Shown here one piece after another: positions 2 to 43,614 of a stretch of 64,000 nt of DNA. Both the position numbers and the translations under genes were made by a program. Position 1 is the first letter of the stretch, and each line of letters starts with the position of its first letter. The notes under the pieces were generated by a model. That model was not told where the DNA came from and searched no databases. It worked only from the letters and a program-made list of their open reading frames with translations. Origin of the DNA: Minisyncoccia bacterium (GTDB lineage: Bacteria; Patescibacteriota; Minisyncoccia; Phycocordibacterales; Phycocordibacteraceae); NCBI GenBank assembly GCA_038912545.1, contig JBCLFD010000001.1, forward strand, positions 18,956 to 82,955. The letters are read 5' to 3'.

Positions 2-1120
2 GACGAGCTCTCCTCGTTCAAACCTCACCACATCGAGTGGAAAGAGGTGAAAGACGAGAAAGACCTCGACGGCGTTCCGGAGAAGTTCGTCAAGAAAGTC
101 GGCAAGGCGACGCACTACGTCGTGAAAGTGCCGAACGTCTACGACGGCTTAGCCTCTGGCGACACCGTTGCCATGGTGCTCGGCGGCTCGGGCGATTGCT
201 TGGCATACGCCCTTGCCAATCGTGGCGAAGAGCTCGGCGCGCGGGTTCTGCGTCTGCCGCCCTTCGTGCTTTCGAAAAAACGCGATGAGCGGCGTGCGGT
301 GCTTAGCGTAAAGGGGGAAGAGTCGAAAAAGAAAGACGACGACGCCACCTTGCTCGCTGAGCTCGCCTCCGGTCAGCCCCATCTGTTTTACACGGTGGAG
401 CAGGCCGACCGCGATCTTATCTGGCTTCGCGAGTGCCTTCGGGCACGGACGGACGCCATGAAGGCGCGCATCGCCTGCGAGCAACGGCTCCGCCAGCGGG
501 TTATCGGCTCGGTGTTCTGCACCGAAGCCGGAAAATTTCCCGCCGGCGGCATCGAGAAGTTTTTCGACGAGAAGAAAGCAAGCGATGTGATTCTCGTGGC
601 GCTCGAAAAAGAAGAAGCATCTGCCGAACGCTCACTTGCGAAGGCGACCGAAAAACTCGCCATCTACAGCGAAGTACTCGGCAAGGTCGAAGGCTGTGGA
701 GTGATGATTGCCTCGCGCATCATCGCCTCGGTCATCGACATCCGGCGTTTCGAAACGGATGCGAAGCTGAAGGCCTTCATGGGCGCCCACGTGCAGGAAG
801 ATGGCCGTTTCCCGCGCAAGCGCACAGGGACTGTCGCCAACTGGCACAACGACGCGCGGCAGGCGCTCTATCTCATCGGAGATCAGTTCAACAAGCGCCC
901 GAATTCGTACTGGGGAAAATACCAGCGTGCGATGAAGGCAAACTTGCGTGGCCGCCATCCGGAAGTGGTCGTCGAGAACGGCAAGAAACGTTACACCGAC
1001 GCGCACATCCTCAAAATGGCCAGCTGGCGGACGCTTACGCGTTTCATCGAATGGCTTTTCAAAGAGTGGTGGGCGCTGGAGCGGGCGCGTTCCGCGATTC
1101 CGCTTCGCAAGGCGGCGTAA
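2..1120 (+). CDS. IS110-family transposase (5'-partial; the frame is open to the window start)
   Basis: C-terminal region CGVMIASRIIASVIDIRRFETDAKLKAFMGAHVQEDGRF...RQALYLIGDQF matches the IS110/Piv transposase_20 domain pattern. There is no stop between base 2 and the listed Met at 47. Confidence 0.7.
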   Translation, partial: DELSSFKPHHIEWKEVKDEKDLDGVPEKFVKKVGKATHYVVKVPNVYDGLASGDTVAMVLGGSGDCLAYALANRGEELGARVLRLPPFVLSKKRDERRAVLSVKGEESKKKDDDATLLAELASGQPHLFYTVEQADRDLIWLRECLRARTDAMKARIACEQRLRQRVIGSVFCTEAGKFPAGGIEKFFDEKKASDVILVALEKEEASAERSLAKATEKLAIYSEVLGKVEGCGVMIASRIIASVIDIRRFETDAKLKAFMGAHVQEDGRFPRKRTGTVANWHNDARQALYLIGDQFNKRPNSYWGKYQRAMKANLRGRHPEVVVENGKKRYTDAHILKMASWRTLTRFIEWLFKEWWALERARSAIPLRKAA

Positions 1121-4539: not shown

Positions 4540-4959
4540 ATGAAATTCACCATCCATGCCGACGGGGGAGCGAGGGGGAATCCGGGGCCCTCCGGAGCGG
4601 GTGCGATGATACGCGATGAGCTCGGCAATTCGGTCAGAGCGGTCTCTGCCTACCTCGGACATCGCACTAATAACTATGCTGAATATGAAGCGGTCATTCG
4701 CGCATTTGATGAATTGCTTAAACTGGTGCCGGCAGGCAAACGTAACAAAACAGAAGTCGCAGTAAAAATGGACAGTGAATTGGTCGTGAAGCAAATGCGT
4801 GGAGAATATAAAGTGAAGCATCCGGTCTTGAAAGAACAGTACGCGCGACTCGTACACAACATCGGTGCATTCGGCAAAGTCACGTTTATGCACGTCTTCC
4901 GCGAAGAAAACTCTGACGCCGACGCCCTCGCGAACGCCGCGATGGATAGGGGAGCATGA
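4540..4959 (+). CDS. rnhA: ribonuclease HI
   Basis: ADGGARGNPGPSG...NNYAEYEA...SDADALAN is the RNase H fold signature. Confidence 0.8.
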   Translation: MKFTIHADGGARGNPGPSGAGAMIRDELGNSVRAVSAYLGHRTNNYAEYEAVIRAFDELLKLVPAGKRNKTEVAVKMDSELVVKQMRGEYKVKHPVLKEQYARLVHNIGAFGKVTFMHVFREENSDADALANAAMDRGA

Positions 4960-6509
4960 TCGGACTTGTTGCTATCGTTACGGGTTTTGCGAGCGGGATA
5001 TTTTCCCGCTCGTTGCTTTTTGAGAGTTGGTGGCCGATATTTTTTGCGCTCTTGCTCGCGCTTATATTTTTTGTCGCAAGTTTTCTAACGACGCGCCGAG
5101 CGTACACGCTCGGCGCGTTGTTTTGTATGTGCCTCGTGCTCGGCGGATTGCGTGCTGGGCTCGCCGAGTCGCCGTTACCGAGCACCTTTCTCGCCGACCT
5201 GAAGCATCGCGTCACGTATGAGGCGCTCGTCGTGGGCGATCCTGACCTGCGCGATACGAATCAGCGTGTCGCACTCTTGGTTACGAAAGGAGATGCAAAA
5301 GTAAAAATGCTCGCGGTCGCGTCGCGCACGTCGGAAGTGAAGGTGGGAGACACGGTCAACGTCTCCGGCACGCTCTCGGTCCCCGAATCGTTTGCTGACG
5401 ACAATGGTCGTATTTTTCGTTACGACAAATATCTGGAGCGCGACGGCATTCGCTTTATGCTGAATTTCGCCTATCTGCGTGTCGTGCAGACGGCTCCACG
5501 ATATTCCATACCTGCTGTGCTTGCGCGAATAAAACATTCATTCCTTGACGGACTCCAAGCATCCTTGCCGGAGCCATACGCATCGCTTGCAGGAGGAGTC
5601 GTGATAGGAGGAAAGTCCGGTCTTGGAAATGAACTGAAAGATGCGTTCACGCGCTCGGGGCTCGTGCATATCGTCGTGCTCTCGGGCCACAACGTAATGA
5701 TTGTTGCGAGTTGGGCGATTGCATTCTTTATTTTCTTCTTCGCCCGAGCCGAAACTATCTTTAGAGTTCGCATCCCGCGCGGTGCAAGCATCGTAGCCGG
5801 AGCACTTGCGCTCATTCTCTTCGTCGGCATCGCGGGATTCTCGGCGACGGCAATCCGCGCGGCGCTCATGGCTCTCATCGCGCTCTATGCTCGGGCGACC
5901 GGCCGGACCTATGCGGCCGGTCGCGCGCTCCTTGTTGTTATTTTTCTTATGCTCCTTTGGAATCCCCTCTATCTCGTTTTTGACCCAGGATTCGGTCTCT
6001 CAGTTGTCGCCACTGCAGGGCTCATCTGGCTTGCGCCTATCATTGATACGTTTTTGCCGATGAGAAATGCTTTCTTGAAAAATATATTGGCAACAGCGCT
6101 CGCGGCGCAAGTCGCCGTTCTCCCTCTTCTTTTGTACTTCACTGGCAATCTCTCACTCGTCGCCATTCCCGCAAATATTGTTGCCGCGCTCGTGGTTCCG
6201 TTTGCCATGGCGTTTTCTTATCTCGCCGGCTTCGGCGGAATACTCTTCGGTTCGACTGCGCTCACCGCAGGCGGCTCCTCTACAGCGTTTCTCGCCATCA
6301 TTCTTGGCATGCCCGCGTATGGTGCGGCGACGGCCCTCATTGAGCTCGCACGAGCGAGCGCAGCGCTTCCATTCGCCGCTGTTATGCTCCCGCCCTTCCC
6401 ATTTTGGCTCGTACTTCTCGCGTATACGGCGCTTATTTATTTCGTTGCGTCGTCGTATCGTTTCTCAACGACTGACCAATTAAGGTTCGCGAAAAATGCA
6501 TCCACGTAA
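4956..6509 (+). CDS. comEC: competence protein ComEC/Rec2 (DUF4131 + Competence domain, no MBL domain)
   Basis: Polytopic membrane protein. LAGGVVIGGKSGLGNELKDAFTRSGLVHIVVLSGHNVMIV matches the ComEC core. Confidence 0.75.
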   Translation: MIGLVAIVTGFASGIFSRSLLFESWWPIFFALLLALIFFVASFLTTRRAYTLGALFCMCLVLGGLRAGLAESPLPSTFLADLKHRVTYEALVVGDPDLRDTNQRVALLVTKGDAKVKMLAVASRTSEVKVGDTVNVSGTLSVPESFADDNGRIFRYDKYLERDGIRFMLNFAYLRVVQTAPRYSIPAVLARIKHSFLDGLQASLPEPYASLAGGVVIGGKSGLGNELKDAFTRSGLVHIVVLSGHNVMIVASWAIAFFIFFFARAETIFRVRIPRGASIVAGALALILFVGIAGFSATAIRAALMALIALYARATGRTYAAGRALLVVIFLMLLWNPLYLVFDPGFGLSVVATAGLIWLAPIIDTFLPMRNAFLKNILATALAAQVAVLPLLLYFTGNLSLVAIPANIVAALVVPFAMAFSYLAGFGGILFGSTALTAGGSSTAFLAIILGMPAYGAATALIELARASAALPFAAVMLPPFPFWLVLLAYTALIYFVASSYRFSTTDQLRFAKNAST

Positions 6510-9264: not shown

Positions 9265-9302
9265 AGTCGCAACATGGTAGCATGGGATTCAAAACGAGCA
9301 AA

Positions 9303-9935
9303 ATGACTTTACTTCTCGCCCTCATCGTTCTCATTCTCTCCATTATCCTCCACGAGGTGGCGCACGGCTACGCTGCCGACTCGCTCGGCGACCCGACCGC
9401 GCGTCTCGCCGGTCGCCTGACTCTTAATCCGGTCCCACATATTGATCTTATGGGTTCCATCGTACTTCCGGCATTACTGGTATTCACTCAATCGCCGATT
9501 CTCTTCGGTTGGGCGAAGCCGGTTCCCTATAATCCCTATAATCTGCGCAATAAGCGCTGGGGGGAGGCGCTCGTCGCTGTTGCGGGCTCGGCAACGAACA
9601 TTCTGCTCGCCATTATCTTTGGTCTCATTGTGCGCTATGGGGCGGGGCTTGGCTTTGATGCCACCGCACTTTCTCTGGCTTCCACGATTGCATTCGTCAA
9701 TCTCTTTTTAGGACTCTTTAATCTCATCCCGATACCCCCTTTAGACGGCTTCACGACTCTGCGCGCGCTCCTGCCATGGAATCTCGCCCAGAGTCTTATT
9801 CGTTTTGAAAATCAAATCCGCGCTGGAGGTGCTCTCTCACTCATCCTCTTCCTCCTCATTTTCTACTACGTTCTTGCTGTCCCTTTCTTCAAGCTTGTTA
9901 TGTATCTCTTCGGTCTCCTTATTGGTGGCGTGTAG
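9303..9935 (+). CDS. site-2 protease family (M50) zinc metalloprotease
   Basis: HEVAHG HExxH motif in TM1, LNPxxHxD, multiple TM segments. Start trimmed to MTLLLAL. Confidence 0.7.
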   Translation: MTLLLALIVLILSIILHEVAHGYAADSLGDPTARLAGRLTLNPVPHIDLMGSIVLPALLVFTQSPILFGWAKPVPYNPYNLRNKRWGEALVAVAGSATNILLAIIFGLIVRYGAGLGFDATALSLASTIAFVNLFLGLFNLIPIPPLDGFTTLRALLPWNLAQSLIRFENQIRAGGALSLILFLLIFYYVLAVPFFKLVMYLFGLLIGGV

Positions 9936-9974: not shown

Positions 9975-10418
9975 ATGGAGTACCAAGTTCCGCAGTTTAT
10001 TGAAGTGGAGGATAAGGTCGTTGGACCACTGACGCTCCGACAATTTATCTATCTCGCCGGCTCTGGCGGTATCTGTGTCATCCTCATCGCCTACCTGCCA
10101 CTCGTTTTCGCGATTCTGCTCTGCATCCCCGTTGTTGCGCTCGGTGCCGCGCTTTCTTTTTATAAAGTAAACGGTAAATCGTTTATAGAAATTCTTGAAG
10201 CGGGCTTCAATTATTACACTGGAGCAAAGATGTTTCTCTGGAAGCGGGAAGCGCCGAAAGCAGAGAAGCCCGGCGCTGCAGCGGCTGCTGCCGCAGCCGC
10301 TGAGGCCGCGCTTCATCCAAAACACGCTCCGCGTCTCACAAGCGGAAAGCTCACCGAGCTCGCGTGGTCGTTAGATATTCAGAAACCAGACACTAACATC
10401 CTAGAGCCAAAATCCTAA
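9975..10418 (+). CDS. PrgI/VirB3-like small membrane protein (T4SS-associated)
   Basis: Two adjacent TM helices after a short N-terminus, poly-Ala/Lys tail, position directly 5' of the VirB4 ATPase. Confidence 0.55.
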   Translation: MEYQVPQFIEVEDKVVGPLTLRQFIYLAGSGGICVILIAYLPLVFAILLCIPVVALGAALSFYKVNGKSFIEILEAGFNYYTGAKMFLWKREAPKAEKPGAAAAAAAAAEAALHPKHAPRLTSGKLTELAWSLDIQKPDTNILEPKS

Positions 10419-10423
10419 TTTGT

Positions 10424-11062
10424 ATGTCTACTCCAACCATCGGCGCCACACAGCATTTCGTTCCCGTTAAAGAGATCCGGAACGGTACCATTATCCTGAA
10501 TGATGGCGGGTATCGCGGTATCCTTATGTGCTCCTCTATCAACTTCGGTCTCAAGTCGGCCGACGAACAGCACGCCATCACGCTTGGATTCCAAAACTTC
10601 TTGAATATGCTTGATTTCTCTATTCAAATCGTTATCAACTCGCGCAAAATGGACCTGCGTCCCTATCTCGCACTCTTAGAGGGGAAATCCGCCGACCAAA
10701 AGACCGAACTAATGCGCATTCAACTGCGTGAATATGTGGAATTCGTCCGTTCGTTCGCCGATCAGGCGAATATTATGACGAAAATGTTTTATATCGTTGT
10801 GCCGTACGCGCCGAGAGCGAGCGTGGCAAATGTTCTGCATACAATCAGCTTTCTCGGCGGGAAGAAAGAAACTCAAGCGGTTCGTGACAGCTCTTTTGAA
10901 GAAGACCGTATCCAGCTTGAACAGCGCCTCTCGCTCGTTGCAGGAGGACTTGAAGGCACCGGCGTGCGCGCGGTCCCTCTCGGCACCGAAGAAGTGATTG
11001 AGCTCCTCTATCGGGCGTTCAATCCGGGCGAGCTGGAGAATCCGATTCGTCTTGATGCATGA
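10424..11062 (+). CDS. VirB4/TraC-type ATPase, N-terminal domain fragment (separate ORF)
   Basis: VPVKEIRNGTIILNDGGYRGILMCSSINFGLKSADEQ matches the start of the CagE_TrbE_VirB N-domain. Ends 36 nt before the ATPase ORF. Confidence 0.6.
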   Translation: MSTPTIGATQHFVPVKEIRNGTIILNDGGYRGILMCSSINFGLKSADEQHAITLGFQNFLNMLDFSIQIVINSRKMDLRPYLALLEGKSADQKTELMRIQLREYVEFVRSFADQANIMTKMFYIVVPYAPRASVANVLHTISFLGGKKETQAVRDSSFEEDRIQLEQRLSLVAGGLEGTGVRAVPLGTEEVIELLYRAFNPGELENPIRLDA

Positions 11063-11098: not shown

Positions 11099-12913
11099 AT
11101 GTCCTTACTCGACTTTCTCAACAAAAAGAATCAAGAAACGCCGGAGATTGTGCCGGTCCTGCCGAAAGACATCTACCGACAGGGGACACTGAATCTCGTT
11201 GATACGATAGCGCCAACCGCGCTGAAGATCGGCTCGCGCGAGCTGGAGCTCGGAGAGAAGTTCGTCCGTGCATTTTATACAATCTCCTATCCGCGTTTTC
11301 TAGCGGACAGCTGGTTCTCGCCAGTGGTGAATCTGGATAAAGTGCTGGATGTCTCAATCTTCATCCACCCGATAGACACCGAGCAGGCGCTCCGCAATTT
11401 CCAGAAAAAGGTCGCCGAGGTGGAGAGCCAGATTAATGAACGCGAGACGAAGGGCCTTGTGCGCGATCCGATGCTTGATACCTCCCACCAGGACCTTGAG
11501 TCGCTCCGCAACAATCTCCAACAGGCGCAGGAAAAACTTTTTGATGTCGGTCTTTACCTTGCGCTTTACGGCGACTCCCGAGAAGAAATTGACAAAACCG
11601 AGGGCGATATCCGCGGGATTCTTGATGCGAAGCTCGTTTACACCAAGCCCGCGCTCTTCCAACAGGAACAAGGATTCCGCTCCTGCCTCCCACTCGGCAC
11701 CGATGAACTCTTGGTTAATTCTAAACTGAATTCGTCGCCCCTCTCGTCGTTCTTCCCCTTCGTTTCGTTTGACCTCACGAGCGATCGCGGGATTCTCTAC
11801 GGGATAAATAGGCATAATTCATCCCTCATCCTCTTTGACCGCTTCTCGCTGGAGAATTACAACTCGGTCGTCTTCGCAAAGTCTGGCTCGGGCAAGAGTT
11901 ATGCGACGAAGCTGGAGGTACTTCGTTCGCTTATGTTCGGCACCGACGTCATCGTCATTGACCCAGAGCGCGAATATGAACAGCTCGCCGAGGCCACCGG
12001 CGGTCGTTCCTTCAATATCTCGCTCTCATCCGAACATCACATCAACCCTTTTGACCTCCCTCCGGTAAAGGAGGATGAGGACCCTCGCGATATCCTGCGC
12101 TCTAACATTATCAATCTCGTCGGGCTTTTCCGCCTTATGCTCGGCGGGCTCTCGCCAACCGAGGACGCGATTATTGACCGTGCCATCAGCGAGACGTATG
12201 CACTTAAAGACATCACCGGCGACGCAGACTTCACCGGTGCGGAACCGCCCTTGCTCTCCGACTTTGAACAAGTGCTCTCTGGCATGGAGGGAAGCGAATC
12301 CCTCGTGGAGCGACTCTCCAAATATACACGCGGGACGTGGTCGGGGTTCCTCAACCAGCCGACGAATATCAATATCAATCAGCAGTTCGTCGTCTTCTCG
12401 GTACGTGATATGGAGGATGAGTTGAAACCGATTGCGATGTATATCACGACGCACTACATCTGGAACGCGATACGTCACGAACTGAAGAAACGCCTGCTCA
12501 TTATTGACGAGGCATGGTGGATGATGAAGAGCGAAGACACAGCGAGCTTCCTCTACAGTATGGCAAAGCGCGGACGCAAATATTATCTCGGCGTCTGCAC
12601 CATCACGCAGGACGTGGAGGACTTCTTAAAGAGCCCGTACGGGAGGCCGATTCTCACAAACTCTTCACTTCAGCTCCTCTTGAAACAATCACCGACGACA
12701 ATTGATGTGCTCCAGCAGACATTTAATCTCACCGACGAAGAAAAATATCTCCTGCTGGAAGCGGGTGTGGGGGAGGGGCTCTTCTTCGCAGGGCTGAAGC
12801 ACGTCGCGATAAAGGTCGTCGCGAGCTATACCGAGGATCAAATCATCACCTCCGATCCTTCCCAGCTCATTGCGATTAAACAAGAGAAGGATCGCCATGC
12901 CGCGCAACAATAG
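11099..12913 (+). CDS. VirB4/TraC-type conjugal-transfer ATPase (core)
   Basis: FVRAFYTISYPRF N-domain continuation. Walker A AKSGSGKSY, Walker B LLIIDEAWWMM. Confidence 0.8.
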   Translation: MSLLDFLNKKNQETPEIVPVLPKDIYRQGTLNLVDTIAPTALKIGSRELELGEKFVRAFYTISYPRFLADSWFSPVVNLDKVLDVSIFIHPIDTEQALRNFQKKVAEVESQINERETKGLVRDPMLDTSHQDLESLRNNLQQAQEKLFDVGLYLALYGDSREEIDKTEGDIRGILDAKLVYTKPALFQQEQGFRSCLPLGTDELLVNSKLNSSPLSSFFPFVSFDLTSDRGILYGINRHNSSLILFDRFSLENYNSVVFAKSGSGKSYATKLEVLRSLMFGTDVIVIDPEREYEQLAEATGGRSFNISLSSEHHINPFDLPPVKEDEDPRDILRSNIINLVGLFRLMLGGLSPTEDAIIDRAISETYALKDITGDADFTGAEPPLLSDFEQVLSGMEGSESLVERLSKYTRGTWSGFLNQPTNININQQFVVFSVRDMEDELKPIAMYITTHYIWNAIRHELKKRLLIIDEAWWMMKSEDTASFLYSMAKRGRKYYLGVCTITQDVEDFLKSPYGRPILTNSSLQLLLKQSPTTIDVLQQTFNLTDEEKYLLLEAGVGEGLFFAGLKHVAIKVVASYTEDQIITSDPSQLIAIKQEKDRHAAQQ

Positions 12914-13523
12914 TAGTCCGCCACCACCGCCCGTGATGACGTGGGGCAAAGCATCTCCGATTCTCATCGTCTCCGGCATTTTTGATGCTCTTCGTTATAT
13001 GTTTTTGATGTTTTGGTTTTTCGGACCGGCTCTGGCAGCCCTCTACTGCACCGTCAAAACTAGCGCGGTGGTCGGGACGACTATAGGAGGGTTCGCGTGT
13101 ACAACAGGAGCTGCGGTGGTTGGTTTCTACGGGGCGCCCATCTTTGCCGCCTTTGGTACTATCATGGCGATGGCGACTGCGCTCGCTGGATTCCTCACCG
13201 TATTCCTTCTTCTCGCCATTATGAATAGTCGTGTATTCAAAGAGCCAACGACAATTTTGTGGGCATTGTTCGGCCTTACTATCAGCATCACCGTCACGGT
13301 GTGGCGGCTCTACAGCGCGCAGATTAAAACCGAAAAGGCTGCCTATAAAAAATGGGAAAAGGAAACTGCAGATGCGCGTGCGCGCGAACAACAACAGCGC
13401 GCTCTACAAGCTCAGCAAGCCCAACAAGCCCAGCAGATGCAACAGACGCAAGCGGAGCAAATTGCTGAACAAGAAGAAACACAACAAGAGGAACAAAAGA
13501 GTCGCGCGGAGGCGTTATACTAG
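12897..13523 (+). CDS. polytopic membrane protein with Gln/Glu-rich C-terminal coiled tail (T4SS-cluster protein)
   Basis: 3-4 TM helices, then QQQRALQAQQAQQAQQMQQTQAEQ. ATG at 12897 overlaps the VirB4 stop; an alternative start is at 12936. Confidence 0.5.
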   Translation: MPRNNSSPPPPPVMTWGKASPILIVSGIFDALRYMFLMFWFFGPALAALYCTVKTSAVVGTTIGGFACTTGAAVVGFYGAPIFAAFGTIMAMATALAGFLTVFLLLAIMNSRVFKEPTTILWALFGLTISITVTVWRLYSAQIKTEKAAYKKWEKETADARAREQQQRALQAQQAQQAQQMQQTQAEQIAEQEETQQEEQKSRAEALY

Positions 13524-13527
13524 AGAC

Positions 13528-14505
13528 ATGCGATATGCGCTTCTGATAGGACTTATGCTCGTGGCGCCGATGATGGTGTCGGCGCAGTATATGACGAGTA
13601 CGGATCCATTCAACCTCACGGTCACGCCTCAGTATCCCGTACCGAATAGTTCTGTCACTCTCACCGCACTCTCTGCGGGCATTGATCTCGCGAACGCGAC
13701 AATGGATGTTTCTGCGAACGGTACGTCGGTCTACAAGGGCTCGGTACGCGCGGTTGATGTCCCAGTCCTAGGCGCCGGCGTGCTCATTAATATACGAGTA
13801 GTGATAACGAGCAATGGCGCGAGCGCGAGCCAGACGGTTTCTGTCCGCCCGCAGGACCTCGTGCTTATAACTGAACCGCTCGCGACCGCACCACCGCTCT
13901 ATCTCGGCAAAGCACTTCCGCCTCTCGGCGGGAGTGTGCGCATTGTCGCCGTAGCAGGATTTAAAAATGGAAGCGGTACCGCGCTTGACCCCGCGAAACT
14001 CTCGTATGCGTGGAAGGTGGACGACGCTCTCCAGGCGAATATGTCGGGTATCGGTAAGAGCGCGATTATCGTCGCGACACCGCTTCAATATCGCAATCGC
14101 AGTGTGTCGGTGGTCGTCCAGAGCCAAGACGGCTCTCTCGTGACCGGCGCATCGCTCTCGCTCGCCCCTCACGAACCGACCGTTCGTATTTATGAAAATG
14201 ACCCCCTGCTCGGCATCCGCTTTGACCGCGCACTATCGTCTTCATACTCCATCACTGATGCAGAATCCTCGCTCTATGCTGGCCTCTATTCATTCCCGAC
14301 TGGAGCGGGCACATCCGCGATTAATTGGTATCTAAATGGTGCACTCGCACAGAGCGGTACAACGATAACACTCCGTCCCACGGGGCTAGGGAAGGGGAAT
14401 GCCTCTCTTTCGCTCGTCGCGGCAATAGGCGACCTTGTGAGCGCAACACAATCGCTTCAAATATTATTCGGGGCGAAGCCCACATCTAATTTCTTCGGCT
14501 TATGA
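13528..14505 (+). CDS. secreted protein (signal peptide, Ala/Ser/Val-rich, beta-rich)
   Basis: MRYALLIGLMLVAPMMVSAQ signal peptide. The listed N-terminal extension is basic read-through, so the start is trimmed. Confidence 0.5.
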   Translation: MRYALLIGLMLVAPMMVSAQYMTSTDPFNLTVTPQYPVPNSSVTLTALSAGIDLANATMDVSANGTSVYKGSVRAVDVPVLGAGVLINIRVVITSNGASASQTVSVRPQDLVLITEPLATAPPLYLGKALPPLGGSVRIVAVAGFKNGSGTALDPAKLSYAWKVDDALQANMSGIGKSAIIVATPLQYRNRSVSVVVQSQDGSLVTGASLSLAPHEPTVRIYENDPLLGIRFDRALSSSYSITDAESSLYAGLYSFPTGAGTSAINWYLNGALAQSGTTITLRPTGLGKGNASLSLVAAIGDLVSATQSLQILFGAKPTSNFFGL

Positions 14506-15458
14506 TGAGAAAAACTTTTATAACTTTGTCGCTCTTCGCCATCGCATTTGTGGCAACGTCCGCGCACGCTCAAGAATTCATCCCGCTCGCGCCCATTCCG
14601 GGCCTCACCACAGGAATAACAGCAGATCAGGCGGGTCTCGCGAACTTTTTAAATAATCTTTACAAATATCTCATTGGTCTTGCTGCTGTTATCGCGGTGG
14701 TAGAGATTATCTGGGGCGGTCTCCTCTATTCCACACAGGATGTGCCGGGATCGAAAACGAATGGAAAAGAAAAAATCCAGAATGCACTCCTCGGCCTCGT
14801 CCTCGTCCTCTCCCCCGTCCTTGTCTTCTCCATCATCAATCCAAGCATCCTGAATCTCTCCATCAATCTCCCGGAGCTCGACACAAAATCCGGCGCTCCG
14901 AATCAAACAGGGGGTACGGGAGGAACTGGGACTCAAACTGTTGATGCTACAACTAACTGTACTGTGACGGGCACGATTGGCATCCTCCAGATTGCGACTT
15001 GTCCAACAGAGTCTGCATCAAAAACATGGGGGGCGACGTGTACGTGGGGTAATTTGTCGTCAATTGAACCCCTCACGATTAGTGCTGGTGGTGCCGTTGC
15101 ACAAAATACAATTTCCTGCTCTAACAAAAACAGTTATGTATTCATAGAGACGATAGGTGTAGTAAGCTTTTCGAAAGCAATAAATACTCTTCGTCCATTA
15201 GCCCAGACTGTCGACAATTCCGAGAATGCATCATCTGCAATTTCGTTTGCGAATATTTGTAATGCAGCAGGACGAAAAACATGCATAAGTGACATCCCTA
15301 AGGTTACTTTTTCCGTTGAGTGTTTACCAAAACCAATGACACAAATTCCTGCCTCATCCGGAGGAAGCGGCAAATGCTATAAAGAGACACTTACTTGTGA
15401 AAATGTAAGCGGAAATACAAAGTGTGTTGCAACTCCTGATTGGACACCATTCCAATAA
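14502..15458 (+). CDS. TrbC/VirB2-like pilin-fold protein with Cys-rich C-terminal extracellular domain
   Basis: Signal peptide, two hydrophobic helices (YLIGLAAVIAVVEIIWGGLLY; ALLGLVLVLSPVLVF), then a ~190-aa domain with 12 Cys. Confidence 0.5.
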   Translation: MMRKTFITLSLFAIAFVATSAHAQEFIPLAPIPGLTTGITADQAGLANFLNNLYKYLIGLAAVIAVVEIIWGGLLYSTQDVPGSKTNGKEKIQNALLGLVLVLSPVLVFSIINPSILNLSINLPELDTKSGAPNQTGGTGGTGTQTVDATTNCTVTGTIGILQIATCPTESASKTWGATCTWGNLSSIEPLTISAGGAVAQNTISCSNKNSYVFIETIGVVSFSKAINTLRPLAQTVDNSENASSAISFANICNAAGRKTCISDIPKVTFSVECLPKPMTQIPASSGGSGKCYKETLTCENVSGNTKCVATPDWTPFQ

Positions 15459-15460
15459 AT

Positions 15461-17095
15461 ATGCGACGGACACTTACCATCATCGCAGTTGTGATAGTCC
15501 TCGGAGGACTTGTGGTGTGGGCGTATTTCTCATTCTTCGCAAATCAGGCGGGCATTACGGTCGCGCCAACGGGTACGACGAGCTTGCCGGGAGCAGGGCA
15601 GGCGACTACCCCCACTCAGGGCGAGACGGCGTCTCCGGCGACGACTGCGGTCACTACAGCGGCTGGTGCACGGTTGGTGAAGATAAGTGCGGGGCCGGTG
15701 GTGCCGAGCCCTATTGTTTACAGAAGCACGTCAACAACAACACCAGGATTCTTTGTAAACTACATTGAGCGACAGAGCGGAAACGTTTTCTCCTATTCGT
15801 CTGTCACCCGTTCATCCACGAGAATAAGCAACAAAACCGTTCCGGGAATCCAGTTGGCAGTGTGGCTTCCGAGTGCCCAGACGGCGTTTGTGCGCTATCT
15901 ATCGGGCACTGATTCTACAACTATCAATACGTACGCTCTGAACGCGGACGGTTCCGACGGTTTCTTTTTGGAACAAAATCTCGCTGATATCGCCGTTTCT
16001 TCAACCAGTATTTTGACTCTCGCGTCTGGCGTAACCGGCTCGGTCGCGTCCACCCGCCGCACCGATGGGACGCGCTCGGTTGAAGTGTTTTCTTCGCCAC
16101 TCTCCTCTCTCCGAGTCGCCCTCGCCGGTAAGAATCGTTATTTCGCCTTTACCAATCCTTCGTCATCTCTCGGTGGAGCGGTATTTCTTGTTGATGGTGC
16201 TGGTCGGCTCTCTCGCATCGCCGGTCCTCTAAACGGACTCGTCGCTCTCCCGAGCCCTTCGGGCGCGACCGTGCTCGTGAGCTATGTGGTCGGCGGCGCG
16301 ATGCAGATGGAGCTTGTGAACACCGCGACCGGCGCCGTGACTCAACTCCCGGTCGCTACTATCGCCGACAAATGTGTCTGGGCTGCTGACAACTTGGCGG
16401 TCTATTGTGGTATCCCAATGAACCCTCCGGCGAACTACACCTACCCAGACGACTGGTACCAGAGCGCAATTTCATTCTCTGATCGTATCTGGAAGATTAA
16501 TGTCGCCGGACGCTATGCTGAATTGGTCCTTGATTTCTCAAAAGAAAATGATATCGCTCTTGATGCTGTGGCTCTTTCTATTGATTCTGCCGGAACGGCA
16601 CTCTCCTTCATCAATAAAATAGACGGCTCTCTCTGGGTATATTCACCACAAATATCGTATCAAGAAGCATCGCAAACATCGCCAGCCCCAACCATTCAAG
16701 TGCCAGTTTCACAAAAAACACCATCAATCAATCAAAATACACCCTCCTCAACAAACAATTCAGAAGTAAATACCCCTCCCGTTTCAACAGGAGCACAAAC
16801 TAACAATCAACTAACGCCAAATCCAACAACATCCGTACCGTCAAGCGTTTCTGTAAACATACAAGGTTTTGCGTTTAATCCCTCAACACTGACAATTAAA
16901 AAAGACACAAAGGTTACGTGGACTAATAATGACAGTGTAATTCATACTGTAACTTCTGATTCCGGTAATCTTCTAAATTCGCCAACACTTTCTCCTGGAA
17001 CATCTTTCAGTTTTACTTTCGCCAACACTGGTTCACTAACCTATCATTGTGCTGTTCACCCGACTATGAAAAGCACAATTATTGTTGAAAACTAA
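15461..17095 (+). CDS. membrane-anchored protein with C-terminal amicyanin/plastocyanin-like cupredoxin domain
   Basis: N-terminal TM, Thr/Ser-rich linker. C-terminus KVTWTNNDSVIHTV...YHCAVHPTM carries type-1 Cu ligands His, Cys-x2-His-x2-Met. Confidence 0.65.
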   Translation: MRRTLTIIAVVIVLGGLVVWAYFSFFANQAGITVAPTGTTSLPGAGQATTPTQGETASPATTAVTTAAGARLVKISAGPVVPSPIVYRSTSTTTPGFFVNYIERQSGNVFSYSSVTRSSTRISNKTVPGIQLAVWLPSAQTAFVRYLSGTDSTTINTYALNADGSDGFFLEQNLADIAVSSTSILTLASGVTGSVASTRRTDGTRSVEVFSSPLSSLRVALAGKNRYFAFTNPSSSLGGAVFLVDGAGRLSRIAGPLNGLVALPSPSGATVLVSYVVGGAMQMELVNTATGAVTQLPVATIADKCVWAADNLAVYCGIPMNPPANYTYPDDWYQSAISFSDRIWKINVAGRYAELVLDFSKENDIALDAVALSIDSAGTALSFINKIDGSLWVYSPQISYQEASQTSPAPTIQVPVSQKTPSINQNTPSSTNNSEVNTPPVSTGAQTNNQLTPNPTTSVPSSVSVNIQGFAFNPSTLTIKKDTKVTWTNNDSVIHTVTSDSGNLLNSPTLSPGTSFSFTFANTGSLTYHCAVHPTMKSTIIVEN

Positions 17096-17187
17096 CCTAA
17101 TTGTTTCGCTCTAAATTCCGATTGTCTCATTATTTCTACGGTCGTAAGTAAGTTGTGCTGATTAACATGTTTGGTCTGTTGGGTTGT

Positions 17188-17940
17188 TTACTCGGGAATG
17201 GTAAGAGATTTTGAGGCAGAACCCTTGGCGAGAGAGCGGCGCATATGCAATTCTTGGAGAGATCCGACGAGGTTTGTGGTGATGAAGTACAAAGCGAGGG
17301 CACTTGAAGTTGTATAGGAAATAATGCCAATAAGGAAGGGAAATACATATTTGAGCTGGAGGCCCATAATCTTTTGAAAGTCACCCTGCATACCGCCCGT
17401 GCTGGAGGGTTTCATCGTTCCTGCGAGAGAGAGATGTGCTTGAAGATATTGTGTGAGCCCTGCAAGTACTGCGAGCACAATACTCTTGCCCGTTACCGCA
17501 ATAATACCAAGTAGATTGAGCGATACCTCATCAGGAACTGGAGTAAATGAATATAAAAGTGCCGTATTTGCTCCCGAAAACGGTTCATAAAAGAATACCC
17601 AATAGAGAGCGAGAAGAACAGGGATTTGAATAAACACCATTAAGATACTGGCAAAAGGATTCACTTTTGCCTCTTTATAAAGAGAGAGTGTCGCTAGTGC
17701 TTCTTTTTCTTTATTCCCTTTGTGGATTTCCTTGAGCTCTTTTAGTTTCGGTTCCAAGTCTCTCATAGCGTGCTGTGTGCGCGCTGCAGCGAGAGAGAAT
17801 GGAAGAAGAATAAGCCGAATGACTATCGTGAGGAGGATAACGGCGATGCCGATGTCCGAACCTGGTACAAGCGCCACAAGCGCCACAAGCGCATTGTAGA
17901 TTGGATCATAAAAAACGGCGTGGAAAAATGCAGATATCAT
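17188..17940 (-). CDS. yidC: membrane protein insertase YidC (short form)
   Basis: YidC/Oxa1 core TM pattern, plus synteny with rnpA-rpmH-dnaA. Confidence 0.85.
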   Translation of the reverse strand: MISAFFHAVFYDPIYNALVALVALVPGSDIGIAVILLTIVIRLILLPFSLAAARTQHAMRDLEPKLKELKEIHKGNKEKEALATLSLYKEAKVNPFASILMVFIQIPVLLALYWVFFYEPFSGANTALLYSFTPVPDEVSLNLLGIIAVTGKSIVLAVLAGLTQYLQAHLSLAGTMKPSSTGGMQGDFQKIMGLQLKYVFPFLIGIISYTTSSALALYFITTNLVGSLQELHMRRSLAKGSASKSLTIPE

Positions 17941-26570: not shown

Positions 26571-28223
26571 TTAATGGGGGAGGTCAACCGTAGAGGCGAC
26601 TTCGGAGAGGGAGGTGATGCCGGCGAGGGCTTTGACGATGCCGTCCTGCGCCATCGTGAGATACCCCTGTTTCGCTGCCATTTTTGCGATGTCATTTGAA
26701 GAGGGATTGTCGCGGAGGAATTGTGCGAGCTCATCGTCCATAAATATCGCTTCGTAGAGGCCGACACGGCCTTTGTAACCCGTTTCGTCTGCACTCGCGG
26801 GGGCTGGTTCCCACACCGTTTCTATTTTTTCTGGTATCAAACTCTTATCGGCAAGTGGTTCAAAAACTTTTGCAATCATTTTTTTCTCTTCGTCGGTAAG
26901 CGGGCGTTCTTTTTTCTGTTCCGGATGCAGGCGGCGCACAAGTCGCTGTGCCATAGAGACCGTGATGGAGGAGCCGAAGGATTTCGGGTCCGCGCCGAGG
27001 TCTGCGAGGCGCGGATAGGTGCCTGAGGCATCATTAGTGTGGAGCGTAGAGAAGACGAAGTGCCCCGTAAGCGCGGCTTGAATAGCGATGTTCGCGGTCT
27101 CGCCGTCGCGGATTTCTCCGACCATAATCACATCCGGGTCCTGGCGCACTATTGAGCGGAGCCCTTCGGCGAAGGTATATTTCTTAGCATCCACCTGCGT
27201 CTGCACAATGCCGTCCAAGTGATATTCAATCGGATCTTCTATTGTAATCACTTTTATTTCGGGCGATTGAATCTCGCGAAGGAAAGAATAGAGAGTGGTT
27301 GTCTTACCGCTTCCCGTAGGCCCCGTGGTGAGCAACATCCCGTTCGGTCGTCTAATCTCGGTCTCTAACCGCGCAAGGAGTTTCGCATTAATACCAAGCT
27401 CAGCATACGACACCTTAGTACTCTTAGGGTCCAAGATACGCAGGACGACCGACTCTCCGTAATTGCCTGGGATGAATGAGGAGCGCATTTCGATCTCAGT
27501 GTCGCCACGCGCGACAGAGAAGCGTCCGTCCTGCGCACGATTTGAAATGTTGAGCTTCACCCCGGATAGCAGTTTGATGCGCGAATTCAGTTGATGATAC
27601 ATAGCGGGCTCAAAAAAATAAATATCAGTGAGGAGACCGTCAATGCGCATCCGAAGACGCGTTTTATCTTCTTCGGGCTCAAAGTGGATGTCGGATGCGC
27701 GAAGCTCAAAAGCGCCGGCGAGCACGGTTTCTAGGATGTGAGTGACGCGGTCAAGCGACTTCAGTGCGGCGCCGGCCTCCAATTCTGCAACGAAGGCATT
27801 GCGAGACGCGAACGTTGTGTGTGGCAGGACGAAGACCCCCGGCTTTGATTCAACCGCGTGCGAGAGGTCGGCGTAGCGAGCGAAAGCGCGGTCCAGCGAC
27901 TTTTGCGAGACAAGAAATTCTTTAAGTACGAAACCGCGCACCACAAGGTCTTCACGGAGTTTCGCGAGCGCTTCGTTGTTCGGATTATGAATAGCAAGTG
28001 ACAACATCTTTGCGGTACGGGCGAATGCCACCACCTCTGCAGCGCGCGCGCCTGCTTCAGGGATAACGCGGATTGCTTCGGCGTCAATATCCGCCATAGA
28101 GAGATCGGCATACTCCATACCGTACTTCTCGGAGAGGATGTGCGCGACGTCTTCTTCTTCGCGTCCGCGCACTTCGTTCAACTTGCGATTTTCCGCGTCG
28201 GTATCAAAAAGTGGGTCTGCCAT
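26571..28223 (-). CDS. type II/IV secretion-system ATPase (PilB/GspE family)
   Basis: T2SSE_N-like N-terminus, Walker A TGPTGSGKTT, Asp/His boxes. Start chosen at MADPLFD. Confidence 0.8.
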   Translation of the reverse strand: MADPLFDTDAENRKLNEVRGREEEDVAHILSEKYGMEYADLSMADIDAEAIRVIPEAGARAAEVVAFARTAKMLSLAIHNPNNEALAKLREDLVVRGFVLKEFLVSQKSLDRAFARYADLSHAVESKPGVFVLPHTTFASRNAFVAELEAGAALKSLDRVTHILETVLAGAFELRASDIHFEPEEDKTRLRMRIDGLLTDIYFFEPAMYHQLNSRIKLLSGVKLNISNRAQDGRFSVARGDTEIEMRSSFIPGNYGESVVLRILDPKSTKVSYAELGINAKLLARLETEIRRPNGMLLTTGPTGSGKTTTLYSFLREIQSPEIKVITIEDPIEYHLDGIVQTQVDAKKYTFAEGLRSIVRQDPDVIMVGEIRDGETANIAIQAALTGHFVFSTLHTNDASGTYPRLADLGADPKSFGSSITVSMAQRLVRRLHPEQKKERPLTDEEKKMIAKVFEPLADKSLIPEKIETVWEPAPASADETGYKGRVGLYEAIFMDDELAQFLRDNPSSNDIAKMAAKQGYLTMAQDGIVKALAGITSLSEVASTVDLPH

Positions 28224-28247
28224 ATGCGCAAATGGTACCATGCACAC

Positions 28248-28697
28248 ATGCAGACGCTCACTACTCTTGCGGACCTTGTTGGCGAAGCAAAGCATTTTGT
28301 AGCGTCTCTCGTTCCGGCGCCCTCCGGCGCGACCCTCGTGACTCTCTCGGGCGAGCTCGGGGCCGGTAAGACGGCTTTCGTCCAAGAGGTCGCCCGCGCG
28401 CTCGGCGTTGAAGAAGTCGTAACAAGCCCTACTTTTGTATTAGAAAAAATCTACGCTCTTCCAAATTATGAACACCGTAAGTCCCTATTTGAACGATTGG
28501 TGCACATAGACGCGTATCGCCTTGAGTCCGGCAAAGAGCTTATCCCGCTCGGCTTTGACGAACTTATGGAAGATACCGACAACTTAATCCTGCTTGAATG
28601 GCCAGAAAAAGTTGCCGATATGCTTCCCGAGCCATCGGTACGTATTTCACTCAAAGCGTTCGTGGGCGGTTCACATTCTATTTCTTATGCGCGGTAA
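28248..28697 (+). CDS. tsaE: tRNA threonylcarbamoyladenosine biosynthesis protein TsaE
   Basis: LSGELGAGKTAFV, SPTFVL, HIDAYRL. Start trimmed to MQTLTT. Confidence 0.75.
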   Translation: MQTLTTLADLVGEAKHFVASLVPAPSGATLVTLSGELGAGKTAFVQEVARALGVEEVVTSPTFVLEKIYALPNYEHRKSLFERLVHIDAYRLESGKELIPLGFDELMEDTDNLILLEWPEKVADMLPEPSVRISLKAFVGGSHSISYAR

Positions 28698-40745: not shown

Positions 40746-40784
40746 CTACTTTTGTACGCGCACTACGAAGCTTTAGCGAAGTAG

Positions 40785-40856
40785 TGCTCTCGGTCAGAAT
40801 CGAACTGACATTGGCCCCTTCGGAGGGGGCTATCCTATCCGTTGAATGACGAGAGC
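40785..40856 (-). tRNA. tRNA-Arg (anticodon CCG)
   Basis: Hand fold. Acceptor GCTCTCG/CGAGAGC, anticodon stem GCCCC/GGGGC, loop CTCCGAA, T-arm GTCAG-TTCGATT-CTGAC. Confidence 0.8.
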
Positions 40857-40939
40857 ATTCTTTCTCCATATTACTCCTCATTAGATTTGGCACAGGCGGG
40901 GAGCCGCATTGGTGCTTGCCCCGTAGCTAACGCGAAGCG

Positions 40940-41597: not shown

Positions 41598-41672
41598 TGG
41601 TGCTCTCGACAGGAATCGAACCTGTATTGGTAGCTCCGCAAGCTACTGTCCTATCCGTTGAACGACGAGAGC
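41598..41672 (-). tRNA. tRNA-Arg (anticodon GCG), CCA encoded
   Basis: Hand fold. Same acceptor/D-arm as the CCG isoacceptor, anticodon stem GTAGC/GCTAC, loop TTGCGGA, T-arm ACAGG-TTCGATT-CCTGT. Confidence 0.75.
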
Positions 41673-41705
41673 AATATCGTGACTCTACCGTGTCTGCTCA
41701 TTTTT

Positions 41706-42808: not shown

Positions 42809-42921
42809 TCTATTGTAGGATTGTGGTTGCCATATTTGACTTATTATCTCAATAATATCATTTTTCAGCTCACTAAACCATTGCATTAATTTTATACCTT
42901 GTGTATACTATAGTTATCACT

Positions 42922-43614
42922 ATGAAATCAACACAGCAACAAAATATGTTCGGTTTATCTAATAAACAGACTGGTTATTCTGTTTATAACGAGGATGCAA
43001 AAAAACGAGCAAAGCAAAATACACTCTCGGAACTTTATCCTAAATTGCCGAACAAAAAATTTGATGTAATTTATGCTGATCCACCTTGGGATTATAATGG
43101 TAAGTTGCAATTTGATAAAAGTAGTACAAATGTAGAAAATCTGGATTTGTCGCGGAAGATATTTATCAGTTCGGCTTCATTTAAATATCCGACACTAAAA
43201 ACAACTGAACTAATGAAATTACCTGTTCAAGAAATTGCAAAAGGTGATTGCTTATTATTCATGTGGACATCAAATCCACATTTGGCTCAAGCGATAGAAC
43301 TTGGTAATGCCTGGGGTTTTGATTATAAAACTGTTGCTTTTGTTTGGGATAAAATGAATCACAATCCTGGGCAATACACACTTTCAAATTGTGAGATATG
43401 TCTAGTATTCAAAAGAGGCAAGATACCAAGACCACGCGGAGCAAGAAATATAAAACAGTTGGTTAGAAGTCCGAGAAAAAAACACAGCGAGAAACCAATG
43501 GAGGTAATTCAAGCAATAGAAAAAATGTTTCCTAATCAAGAACGCATCGAATTATTTGCAAGACGAAAAACGGACGGTTGGTCAGTTTGGGGATTAGATG
43601 TGTTTAACGAGTAA
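42922..43614 (+). CDS. MT-A70-family N6-adenine DNA methyltransferase (R-M system M subunit)
   Basis: DVIYADPPWDYNGK (DPPW motif IV), MT-A70-like fold order. AT-rich. ATG at 42922 preferred over the listed GTG at 42901. Confidence 0.75.
   Translation: MKSTQQQNMFGLSNKQTGYSVYNEDAKKRAKQNTLSELYPKLPNKKFDVIYADPPWDYNGKLQFDKSSTNVENLDLSRKIFISSASFKYPTLKTTELMKLPVQEIAKGDCLLFMWTSNPHLAQAIELGNAWGFDYKTVAFVWDKMNHNPGQYTLSNCEICLVFKRGKIPRPRGARNIKQLVRSPRKKHSEKPMEVIQAIEKMFPNQERIELFARRKTDGWSVWGLDVFNE

Follow-up and report, generated by a model that had tools for sequence, protein, structure and literature searches.

The window, by which we mean the whole 64,000-nucleotide (64-kb) stretch of DNA that was analysed, contains a seven-gene T4SS operon on the + strand that adjoins yidC-dnaA-dnaN. 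This chromosomal, origin-proximal T4SS belongs to a CPR bacterium that is, judging by named homologues, of the Kaiserbacteria/Paceibacteria type. The operon begins with a PrgI/VirB3-like T4SS membrane protein (9975..10418; PF12666 PrgI, 43.1 bits), whose gene is syntenic in the related loci L001–L004 and L006. The following 212-residue TrsD/TraC-like protein (10424..11062) has orthologues with precomputed PF26593 TraC-like matches, and resembles the N-terminal part of VirB4, as NCBIfam matches fall in that region of the VirB4 models; TrsD is described in PMC12102498. The third gene encodes a 604-residue VirB4-family ATPase of the monoderm (CD1110/MPF-FATA) type (11099..12913), which matches PF19044, PF12846 and the NCBIfam model conju_CD1110 (382 bits against a cut-off of 325). 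Next is a syntenic polytopic membrane protein of about 208 residues with several hydrophobic segments and a Gln-rich tail (12897..13523); no Pfam or NCBIfam family scores above its cut-off, and the protein is a candidate VirB6 analogue, with a 604-residue orthologue in L004. The fifth gene, conserved directly upstream of the pilin gene, encodes a secreted 325-residue protein (13528..14505) with the signal-peptide-like start MRYALLIGLMLVAPMMVSAQ, which is 93–95% identical in L001 and L002 and has no Pfam, NCBIfam, PHROGs or PADLOC match. The pilin gene itself (14502..15458) is followed by the gene for a membrane-anchored 544-residue protein (15461..17095). The first ~394 residues of this last protein are conserved, at about 90% identity to 396-residue orthologues; the version in the window additionally has a low-complexity linker and a cupredoxin domain (PF00127, 33.6 bits at residues 469–550 of the 551-residue ORF), and the homology of its gene to the other loci ends at 16636.

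A comparison with related T4SS modules, as proposed in the preliminary description of the locus, reveals the same operon in six other loci: the seven-gene order recurs in L001, L002, L004, L006 and the distant L003, and partly in L005. The operon matches the published T4SS of the Patescibacteria (PMC12102498, PMC10633639, PMC12857230).

The complete pilin-fusion gene (14502..15458, + strand) encodes 318 residues plus the stop codon, exactly as originally delimited. Its ATG overlaps the stop codon of the upstream gene (ATGA), which suggests translational coupling between the two. Because 749 database proteins match the product, about 100 of them over the full length at 40–60% identity, a chance ORF can be dismissed, and we take this to be a real gene. 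All of the parts previously described are present: a signal peptide, two hydrophobic helices, a linker rich in Gly and Thr, and about 190 C-terminal residues that are rich in Cys. First, residues 1–23 (14502..14570; …ATSAHA|Q) read directly as a Sec-type signal peptide. This segment, MMRKTFITLSLFAIAFVATSAHA|QEF, has a basic n-region, a hydrophobic h-region and A-x-A at positions −3/−1, as judged by eye, and relatives contain the equivalent cleavage motif …HVFA|QGF; cleavage probably occurs after residue 23. Second, residues 24–128 (14571..14885) form a VirB2-like pilin core, with a conserved N-terminal FxPLAxIPGLT motif and an invariant INPSILNLS followed by a semi-conserved NLPxLDTxS stretch. 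Hydropathy, with peaks at residues 5–23, 49–78 and 90–121, places TM1 at residues ~56–76 (14667–14729) and TM2 at residues ~94–113 (14781–14840), and AF2, with helices at residues 43–77, 84–112 and 114–120, predicts a two-helix hairpin. The Lys-rich loop between the helices (residues 77–93), STQDVPGSKTNGKEK, contains three Lys residues. Third, a Gly/Thr-rich flexible linker (residues ~129–146; 14886..14939) varies in length and sequence among the aligned relatives, and the pLDDT falls below 50 at residues 117–141. Finally, residues 147–318 (14940..15455) constitute an alpha/beta domain, hereafter called the “Q-type” domain. The mature fusion would thus comprise about 295 residues including this 172-residue folded domain, while the core alone is of canonical pilin size.

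Is the core a conjugative pilin? This had been proposed from the topology, on the understanding that a pilin-family match should exist, and it does: PF18895 T4SS_pilin matches residues 45–104 at 39.0 bits, against a curated cut-off of 26.6 (Pfam profile HMM), the homologues likewise pass, and the gene lies within a T4SS operon with PrgI/VirB3 and VirB4. The TrbC family named at the outset fared less well, as PF04956 TrbC/VirB2 scores 24.2 bits, just under its cut-off of 27.9, and it is passed by some homologues (for example, P0059 at 30.2 bits). The fusion shares with VirB2-type pilins in general the Sec signal peptide, the two subsequent hydrophobic helices with a short basic loop, and the location inside a T4SS cluster with VirB4 and VirB3, but it exceeds their mature size of about 64–104 residues without an extra folded domain. 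A type IV (T4P) pilin was considered and rejected, since on direct reading the cleavage site, A-H-A|Q, is of the Sec type, and the prepilin-peptidase motif G-F-T-L-I-E of a class III signal peptide is absent; the T4P Pfam families do not match it at E values up to 10. A PDB single-sequence search with the core returned only noise.

The Cys-rich region was initially credited with 12 cysteines. We count 10, at positions 153, 167, 180, 206, 253, 261, 274, 292, 299 and 308, and the motifs listed at that time also sum to 10. Across 56 full-length relatives, eight of the 10 are invariant and the other two are kept in at least 90%; C261 and C308 are lost jointly, as are C206 and C274. The domain bears the C-terminal motif P-x-W-T-P-F-Q. 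The AlphaFold check that had been suggested yields a confident model of the isolated domain (AF2, pLDDT 90.1, pTM 0.83), and we regard it as a real, compact fold on the strength of this prediction. Searches of Pfam, PDB, BFVD, PHROGs and PADLOC return no match to the Q-type domain, and an exhaustive HMMER search of 1.84 billion proteins retrieved only 44 representative clusters. With the exception of four fragments and a single weak match that looks unrelated, it always occurs C-terminally in pilin-length fusions, behind this pilin core. When the C-domain by itself was used in a word-index homology search, there were no matches, which reflects a limit of the tool, as HMMER gave the 44 clusters. 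The idea of a disulfide-stabilised domain gains support from the related tails: the Cys count is even in all 68 tails longer than 60 residues, which argues for complete disulfide pairing, and the Q-type domain is probably locked by five disulfides. The 64-kb window encodes no Dsb- or VKOR-type oxidoreductase, and this counts against the disulfide model.

How common is the fusion? It is unusual beside the classical VirB2/TrbC pilins, as first noted. In this clade, in contrast, it is the norm, with tails longer than 60 residues in 68 of the 72 species-representative relatives. The 84 tails fall into at least about 29 sequence families. Members of a single core subfamily end bare or carry a tail that is P/T-rich, Cys-rich (about 100 residues), Q-type or composed of two modules, and N-terminal modules occur in it as well; the histories of core and tail are decoupled. 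Exactly one pilin core is found per locus in 79 of the 86 loci, the search pattern having failed on the other seven. Tandem pilin arrays, as in Saccharibacteria, were considered and occur in none of these 79 loci, and the window contains no second core. The “tip” location that the preliminary description had assigned to the tail is unlikely, because this is the sole pilin gene in the operon.

The tail is an exchangeable cassette (14891..15453, + strand), a segment without nucleotide homology to five otherwise syntenic genomes. The blastn breakpoints against these genomes lie at 14884–14893 on the 5′ side and at 15441–15460 on the 3′ side, so that homology is lost from codon ~130 and regained at or within about 15 nucleotides of the stop codon. 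The flanks in L005 are 96.9% and 97.9% identical in nucleotide sequence to those in the window, with no homology in the stretch between the two flanks, and the L001, L002, L004 and L006 flanks are 86–93% identical, with the same breakpoints as L005. The flanking proteins are 86–99% identical, yet the tails have no BLAST match between the loci. These alignments, in which all of the compared genomes are MAGs, show that the tail cassette is exchanged between near-identical genomes. The GC content is 0.442 in the cassette, as against 0.496 in the core and 0.514 in the operon.

The tail shared by L001 and L004 and that of L002 represent separate families. The L005 tail (P0023) might also be called unrelated; we rejected this reading, as BLAST connects it through intermediates to Q-domain members. 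P0023 matches L056 (E = 5e-17) and L057 (1.5e-11), each of which in turn matches the Q-domain HMM, and these links indicate that P0023 belongs, as a highly divergent member, to the 10-Cys superfamily of the Q-type domain; the direct profile-profile match to the Q-domain is weak (hhalign probability 26%, E = 7e-4). In the sequences searched, the tail swap comes without an immunity-like gene, a silent copy or a repeat: tblastn with alternative tails found no silent cassettes of the Neisseria pilE/pilS type in the 64-kb window, L001 or L002, and there are no direct or inverted repeats involving 14502–15458. A DGR target was rejected as well, since there is no template repeat, the alleles are wholly different rather than point-mutated copies, and the sole RVT_3 match (4540–4959) is an RNase H. 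A route for allelic replacement does exist, because the genome encodes ComEC and there is a demonstration of natural competence in CPR (PMC10633639).

What does the fusion do? We lean towards the explanation that the tail is a binding module, shuffled by recombination, which the single VirB2-like pilin of this T4SS displays outside the cell, and we infer polymerisation, surface display, ligand binding and the recombination mechanism as follows. The Sec pathway would insert the protein into the membrane, and signal peptidase would cut after residue 23. The two helices are expected to form a hairpin with an N-out/C-out topology and a cytoplasmic Lys-rich loop; because of this topology, the 172-residue C-terminal domain would fold outside the membrane on its flexible Gly/Thr linker, locked by the five putative disulfides. 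The VirB4/TrsD/PrgI machine would then extract the core from the membrane and assemble it into a T4SS conduit or pilus. As both termini face outwards in VirB2-type filaments, every subunit would show its tail on the fibre surface. There, the tail would bind to the surface of the host or of a partner cell. Homologous recombination, acting between the highly conserved pilin core on one side and the conserved gene downstream on the other, would swap in other disulfide-rich modules, and tail replacement would change the binding specificity between strains. An exchangeable, folded, disulfide-rich outer domain is thus a candidate host-recognition module. The adhesin role attributed to the tail in the preliminary description is putative. 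Counting against a binding role, the adhesin-family search drew a blank: no tail matches a ligand, lectin-like or adhesin family in Pfam, PDB, BFVD or PHROGs.

To our knowledge, none of the solved VirB2-type filaments bears a domain of about 19 kDa on each subunit. Such a domain could hinder filament packing; by a rough geometric estimate, a linker of about 25 residues would permit an outer shell of tail domains. A bolder version of the proposal, which we advance tentatively, holds that in Kaiserbacteria/Paceibacteria-type CPR bacteria a single, almost invariant pilin builds the fibre, that its termini display folded, disulfide-locked receptor-binding modules drawn from a large lineage-shared pool and swapped by natural transformation/recombination, and that the tail is the main determinant of the host or partner range.

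Alternatively, the hairpin might never polymerise, and might only anchor the protein or dock it at the T4SS channel, so that the Cys-rich domain works beside the secretion pore, rather like the surface adhesins of Gram-positive conjugation systems. We judge this possible and rather unlikely. The machinery is of the monoderm MPF-FATA type (PMC12102498), which normally lacks pili, and a large domain on each subunit is awkward in a tight helical fibre. VirB2-type pilins in general polymerise with phospholipid into an extracellular filament, but polymerisation is unproven here because no T4SS pilus has so far been observed in any Patescibacterium (PMC12857230). However, a simple anchor would not need anything like the conservation seen in the core, with 26 invariant columns in an alignment of 23 diverse cores and 80–100% identity among close relatives whose tails wholly differ. 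In addition, the core groups with a polymerising pilin family, bare pilins of canonical size occur in the same core subfamily, and VirB2-like pilins are essential in the sole CPR system tested (PMC10633639).

The C-terminal region might instead be a pro-domain that is cleaved at pilin maturation and plays no role on the mature structure, or is released as a soluble factor. P-type pilins are known to be processed at the C-terminus, as RP4 TrbC is (cited in PMC6536674); the NLPxLDTxS stretch before the linker, semi-conserved in every allele, could be a processing site, and the upstream region of close relatives has a syntenic gene for an M50 protease. We nevertheless find this improbable: a disposable propeptide would hardly keep 10 conserved cysteines and a confidently predicted compact fold, nor would it be expected to come as dozens of different folded modules that all keep strictly to Cys parity.

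The sharply bounded, unrelated C-terminal alleles behind a conserved N-terminus in near-identical strains also recall polymorphic toxins or effectors, in which an N-terminal delivery module carries variable C-terminal toxins, as in CdiA-CT or Rhs-CT. This explanation is very improbable. The swap ends so close to the stop codon, in front of a gene that is about 90% conserved whichever allele precedes it, that the tail cannot be moving together with a cognate immunity gene, and the toxin/immunity reading was rejected on the ground that no gene is exchanged along with the tail. The tails tested match no toxin, enzyme or defence family (Pfam, PHROGs, PADLOC), and small disulfide-rich modules suit extracellular binding rather than the cytoplasm of a target cell. 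Finally, an ORF fusion error (a lost stop codon or frameshift) or a chimeric MAG assembly behind the allele differences is scarcely credible, even though all of the genomes are metagenome-assembled and L005 has an odd inverted match at a contig end, as over 100 full-length homologues, independent of one another and drawn from different studies, share the same uninterrupted architecture, all alleles are in frame with an identical junction in the junction alignments, and each tail family recurs in other genomes.

If the bolder version of the proposal is correct, then no conjugative-type pilin was previously known to bear display domains, and the tail exchange would parallel, in bacteria, the shuffling of phage receptor-binding proteins. 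Host recognition and attachment are a central open question for the ultrasmall CPR/Patescibacteria, and the T4SS is essential in the only CPR system that has been genetically tested (PMC10633639). The tail domain is a candidate specificity determinant that is small, soluble, probably disulfide-stabilised, experimentally tractable and expressible alone, and near-identical strains differing only in the tail cassette provide a natural experiment. The fusion also raises the question of whether VirB2-type filaments can bear folded cargo on each subunit, which matters for T4SS structure and display technology. Furthermore, the tail variety explains the large number of structural clusters into which PF18895 proteins divide in freshwater metagenomes (bioRxiv 10.1101/2025.04.23.650224).

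The closest known relatives are the VirB2-like pilins of the Patescibacteria (CPR) T4SS (PMC10633639; PMC12102498), which belong to the same Pfam family, PF18895, and are encoded in the same monoderm-type operon (PrgI/VirB3, TrsD, VirB4) near dnaA, in a cluster without a relaxase or coupling protein. The variability of CPR pilins is thought to aid host adaptation (Wang et al. 2023, PMC10633639; Quinonero-Coronel et al. 2025, PMC12102498). The published CPR pilins are small, and vary through arrays of 2–11 divergent paralogues, mainly in Saccharimonadia and Microgenomatia (PMC10633639; PMC12102498); here, in contrast, there is one gene with a near-invariant core, and the variability resides in large, folded, Cys-rich C-terminal (sometimes N-terminal) cassettes. 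We found no description of cassette-swapped folded tails on a single CPR pilin in the searchable literature.

The VirB2 of the bacteria-killing X-T4SS of Xanthomonadales has a “highly variable C-terminal extension”, for which decoration of the pilus surface for species-specific binding and removal by processing have both been put forward (Sgro et al. 2019, PMC6536674). Those extensions measure some tens of residues, with no reported fold, on mature proteins of 80–104 residues, as compared to a 172-residue domain with five putative disulfides in about 295 residues here, and the X-T4SS organisms are diderm whereas the present one is monoderm. The classical pilins TraA (F), TrbC (RP4) and VirB2 (Ti) share the signal peptide, the hydrophobic two-helix hairpin, the basic loop and the VirB4-containing operon, and both termini lie outside in the assembled classical fibre (Costa et al. 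2016, as cited in PMC6536674). They differ in being 64–70 residues long when mature and in lacking an extra domain; cyclisation or C-terminal trimming occurs in some of them. The outer domains of flagellin and the receptor-binding-protein tips of phages likewise combine a conserved core, for polymerisation or attachment, with variable surface domains that recombination shuffles between strains; the analogy is purely functional, as neither has a sequence or fold relationship to the tails, and the variable region of flagellin is a central insertion. Lastly, the Mycoplasma ICE pilin-like protein (NF045849, Mbov_0395 family) resembles the fusion in being a two-helix protein of a monoderm T4SS. The NCBIfam model matches residues 49–113 weakly (E = 0.0084, 15.8 bits, far under the cut-off of 40), and its 80 positions are about the size of the core alone.

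The open reading frame at 14502–15458 (+) is confirmed by translation and encodes a protein of 318 residues, and its ATG start codon shares bases with the stop codon of the preceding gene (ATGA), as expected for genes inside an operon. Hydropathy analysis reveals three hydrophobic stretches, at residues 5–23, about 49–78, and about 90–121. By eye, the first of these closes with a standard cleavage site for signal peptidase I, A-H-A|Q. The AlphaFold2 model, built on an alignment of 56 sequences, contains a two-helix hairpin (residues 43–77 and 84–112) and a short helix (residues 114–120). The signal peptide and two hydrophobic helices of the preliminary description are thus borne out, and so is the pilin assignment in the profile search: the Pfam family T4SS_pilin (PF18895) matches residues 45–104 with 39.0 bits (curated cut-off, 26.6), while TrbC/VirB2 (PF04956) scores 24.2 bits, just below its cut-off of 27.9. 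Some homologues pass both cut-offs. The positive-inside rule and the analogy with VirB2 would place the Lys-rich loop STQDVPGSKTNGKEK in the cytoplasm and both pilin termini outside. Judging from its 749 matches in the database, about 100 of them full-length at 40–60% identity, the 318-residue protein is clearly real. Its named homologues suggest an affiliation with Kaiserbacteria/Paceibacterota.

The pilin fusion is encoded by the sixth gene of a conserved seven-gene operon. On the + strand, the operon encodes a PrgI/VirB3-like protein (9975–10418; PF12666), a TrsD/TraC-like protein of 212 residues (10424–11062), the VirB4 ATPase (11099–12913; NCBIfam conju_CD1110, 382 bits versus a cut-off of 325), a polytopic membrane protein (about 12897–13523), a secreted protein of 325 residues (13528–14505), the pilin fusion, and a membrane-anchored protein (15461–17095), followed by yidC, dnaA, and dnaN. 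This order is kept in five closely related loci from metagenome-assembled genomes (L001, L002, L004, L006, and, partially, L005) and also in the distant locus L003, in which the pilin is 48% identical to that of the window. The operon is the already described T4SS of Patescibacteria, which is MPF-FATA-like, relaxase-free, and located near dnaA, has VirB2-like pilins, and has proved essential in 'Ca. Southlakia epibionticum' (PMC12102498, PMC10633639, PMC12857230). The 64-kb window contains no second pilin core, and each of 79 related loci contains exactly one; the fusion is therefore the only pilin of its operon, which argues against a minor-pilin role and against the tip location suggested previously. 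Three species-representative genomes have two separate pilin-core loci each, with tails that differ within the genome: WY3.bin61 (L049, L082), WY5.bin169 (L052, L083), and P6-10 (L073, L086). Some lineages thus keep two pilin-fusion paralogues. An M50-family (site-2 protease-like) gene at 9282–9935 lies directly upstream of the PrgI gene, as in L001, L002, L004, and L006, while three other genes intervene in L003; a role of this protease in pilin processing is pure speculation.

Next to the core and its linker, the C-terminal domain (residues 147–318, hereafter called the "Q-type domain") contains ten cysteines, at positions 153, 167, 180, 206, 253, 261, 274, 292, 299, and 308, rather than the 12 counted initially. 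In the alignment of 56 full-length relatives, eight of them are invariant and two are conserved in at least 90%, and the C-terminal motif P-x-W-T-P-F-Q is conserved as well. A profile alignment of 140 Q-type domains retains all ten cysteines in 113, and the losses tend to be paired (C261 with C308, C206 with C274). The domain modeled separately adopts a confident alpha/beta fold (pLDDT 90.1, pTM 0.83). It has no match in Pfam, PDB sequence profiles, PHROGs, or PADLOC, and no Foldseek match in BFVD or the PDB (best E = 0.49). When 1.84 billion representative proteins are searched exhaustively with HMMER, the domain turns up in only 44 clusters, including four fragments and one weak, unrelated-looking match. 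In the other clusters, the domain is always C-terminal in proteins of pilin-fusion length, and a Pfam scan of six full-length matches of atypical length finds T4SS_pilin in every one.

How widespread are such tails? The relatives retrieved first include 13 in which a further Cys-rich module separates the core from the Q-type domain and eight with other tails, and a core-only search also finds bare pilins (tails of 3–8 residues) and short P/T-rich tails. In order to obtain an unbiased sample, we scanned species-representative genomes with the core-only alignment. Tails longer than 60 residues occur in 68 of the 72 complete genes, and the Q-type domain in 21 according to the HMM, or in 26 if transitive BLAST linkage is the criterion. 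Single-linkage clustering divides 84 tails into 29 sequence families. The pilin–tail fusion, previously considered unusual, is therefore the rule within this clade, and it is modular. Every one of the 68 tails longer than 60 residues has an even number of cysteines (0–16), a parity that hardly admits an explanation other than complete extracellular disulfide pairing. Modules also occur between the signal peptide and the core, as about 270 residues of repeats in the homologue P0136 and a Cys-rich module of ~40 residues in P0059. Several loci have N-terminal regions of 238–269 residues, and the relatives with N-terminal modules include L007, L046, L052, and L079. This placement fits the exposure of both termini on the same side.

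The tail-coding cassette (~14891–15453) is replaced between near-identical genomes. The operon is common to six genomes that belong to a single MAG series. When the window is compared with L001 or L002, the flanking proteins show 86–99% identity and the pilin cores 82–89%, while the tails (193, 109, and 99 residues) yield no BLAST alignment. The L005 DNA is 96.9% identical to the window at 11300–14893 and 97.9% at 15453–16431, with nothing between. In L001, L002, L004, and L006, the homology breaks at 14884–14890 and resumes at 15441–15460 (window coordinates). At the junction, identity extends up to …LPELDTKSG and is lost from the next codon; the alleles all diverge as far as the stop codon, beyond which they have the start of the next gene in common. 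Sequence comparison indicates that the histories of core and tail are decoupled. The cores closest to that of the window (92–100% identical) carry tails without a BLAST match to its tail, except for one Q-type tail that is only 42% identical, and the closest Q-type tails (62%) are on cores only 68–69% identical. The GC content of the cassette (0.442) is lower than those of the core (0.496) and the operon (0.514). We detected no immunity-like gene travelling with the cassette, no repeat or DGR signature at it, and no silent copy in the sequence examined. P0023, the tail found in L005, probably belongs as a very divergent member to the same 10-Cys superfamily, to which intermediates tie it, with a weak direct profile–profile signal; the L001/L004 tails and the L002 tail form distinct families. 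At its end, the L005 contig (5109–5435) is 99.4% identical, in inverted orientation, to 17036–17362 of the window, starting directly after the equivalent of position 16431, which reflects either a local inversion or a contig-end assembly artefact.

Two other genes of the operon vary at their 3′ ends. The product of the gene downstream of the pilin (15461–17095) has a window-specific C-terminal addition (16637–17227; GC 0.389) consisting of a Pro/Thr/Ser/Asn/Gln-rich linker and a cupredoxin (amicyanin/plastocyanin-like) domain, while its orthologues in L001, L002, L003, and L004 end at 396–398 residues. This is the second variable C-terminal module of the operon. The third is in the polytopic membrane protein, which has 604 residues in L004 (5153–6967) versus about 208 in the window (12897–13523) and the other loci; the L004 homology breaks at 13397–13512 of the window.

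The evidence best supports a VirB2-like pilin with an outward, disulfide-locked binding module that would be exchanged by recombination; its polymerisation, display, and binding are inferred. The conserved core would interact with the VirB4/TrsD/PrgI machinery. The outward-facing C-terminus would bear the disulfide-locked module on a flexible linker. Homologous recombination across the conserved flanks would exchange the module between strains. The window encodes ComEC (4956–6509), and a published study demonstrates competence in CPR bacteria (PMC10633639). Ranked by plausibility, the foremost rival is a non-polymerising, membrane-anchored surface protein, followed by a tail that acts as a cleaved pro-domain or released factor. 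A polymorphic toxin is disfavoured, as the tail matches no toxin family and a co-varying immunity gene is absent. An artefact can be dismissed in practice, since more than 100 independent homologues are likewise in frame.

Earlier publications already cover the pilin family, the operon, and the location of the latter close to the replication origin. In the searchable literature, we found neither the fusion of T4SS_pilin to large folded Cys-rich modules, nor the size of this repertoire, nor the replacement of cassettes between near-identical genomes. The closest precedent is VirB2 of the bacteria-killing T4SS of Xanthomonadales, with 'highly variable C-terminal extensions' on mature pilins of 80–104 residues; the authors of that study likewise consider both display and processing (PMC6536674). 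The pilin tail offers a candidate determinant of host specificity in CPR bacteria that can be put to the test.

Elsewhere in the window, a marked low-GC island (0.372 versus about 0.50 for the window) contains an S8-family subtilase that also has a peptidoglycan-binding domain (34107–35954, −) and may have been acquired horizontally. A MunI-type restriction enzyme (43625–44236) and an MT-A70 methyltransferase (42901–43614) occupy another low-GC stretch (0.42–0.46), near two 74-nt copies (40784–40857 and 41600–41673; 74% identical) that look tRNA-like. At the left edge, 47–1120 (+) weakly matches the IS110-family transposases (PF01548 under its cut-off, PF02371 barely over). Type IV pilus loci at 26571–28385 (−) and 45109–47277 (+) include a PilB-type ATPase and PilM, the latter followed by two small reading frames without a family match, possibly PilN/O. 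The organism thus has both type IV pilus genes and the T4SS pilin system.
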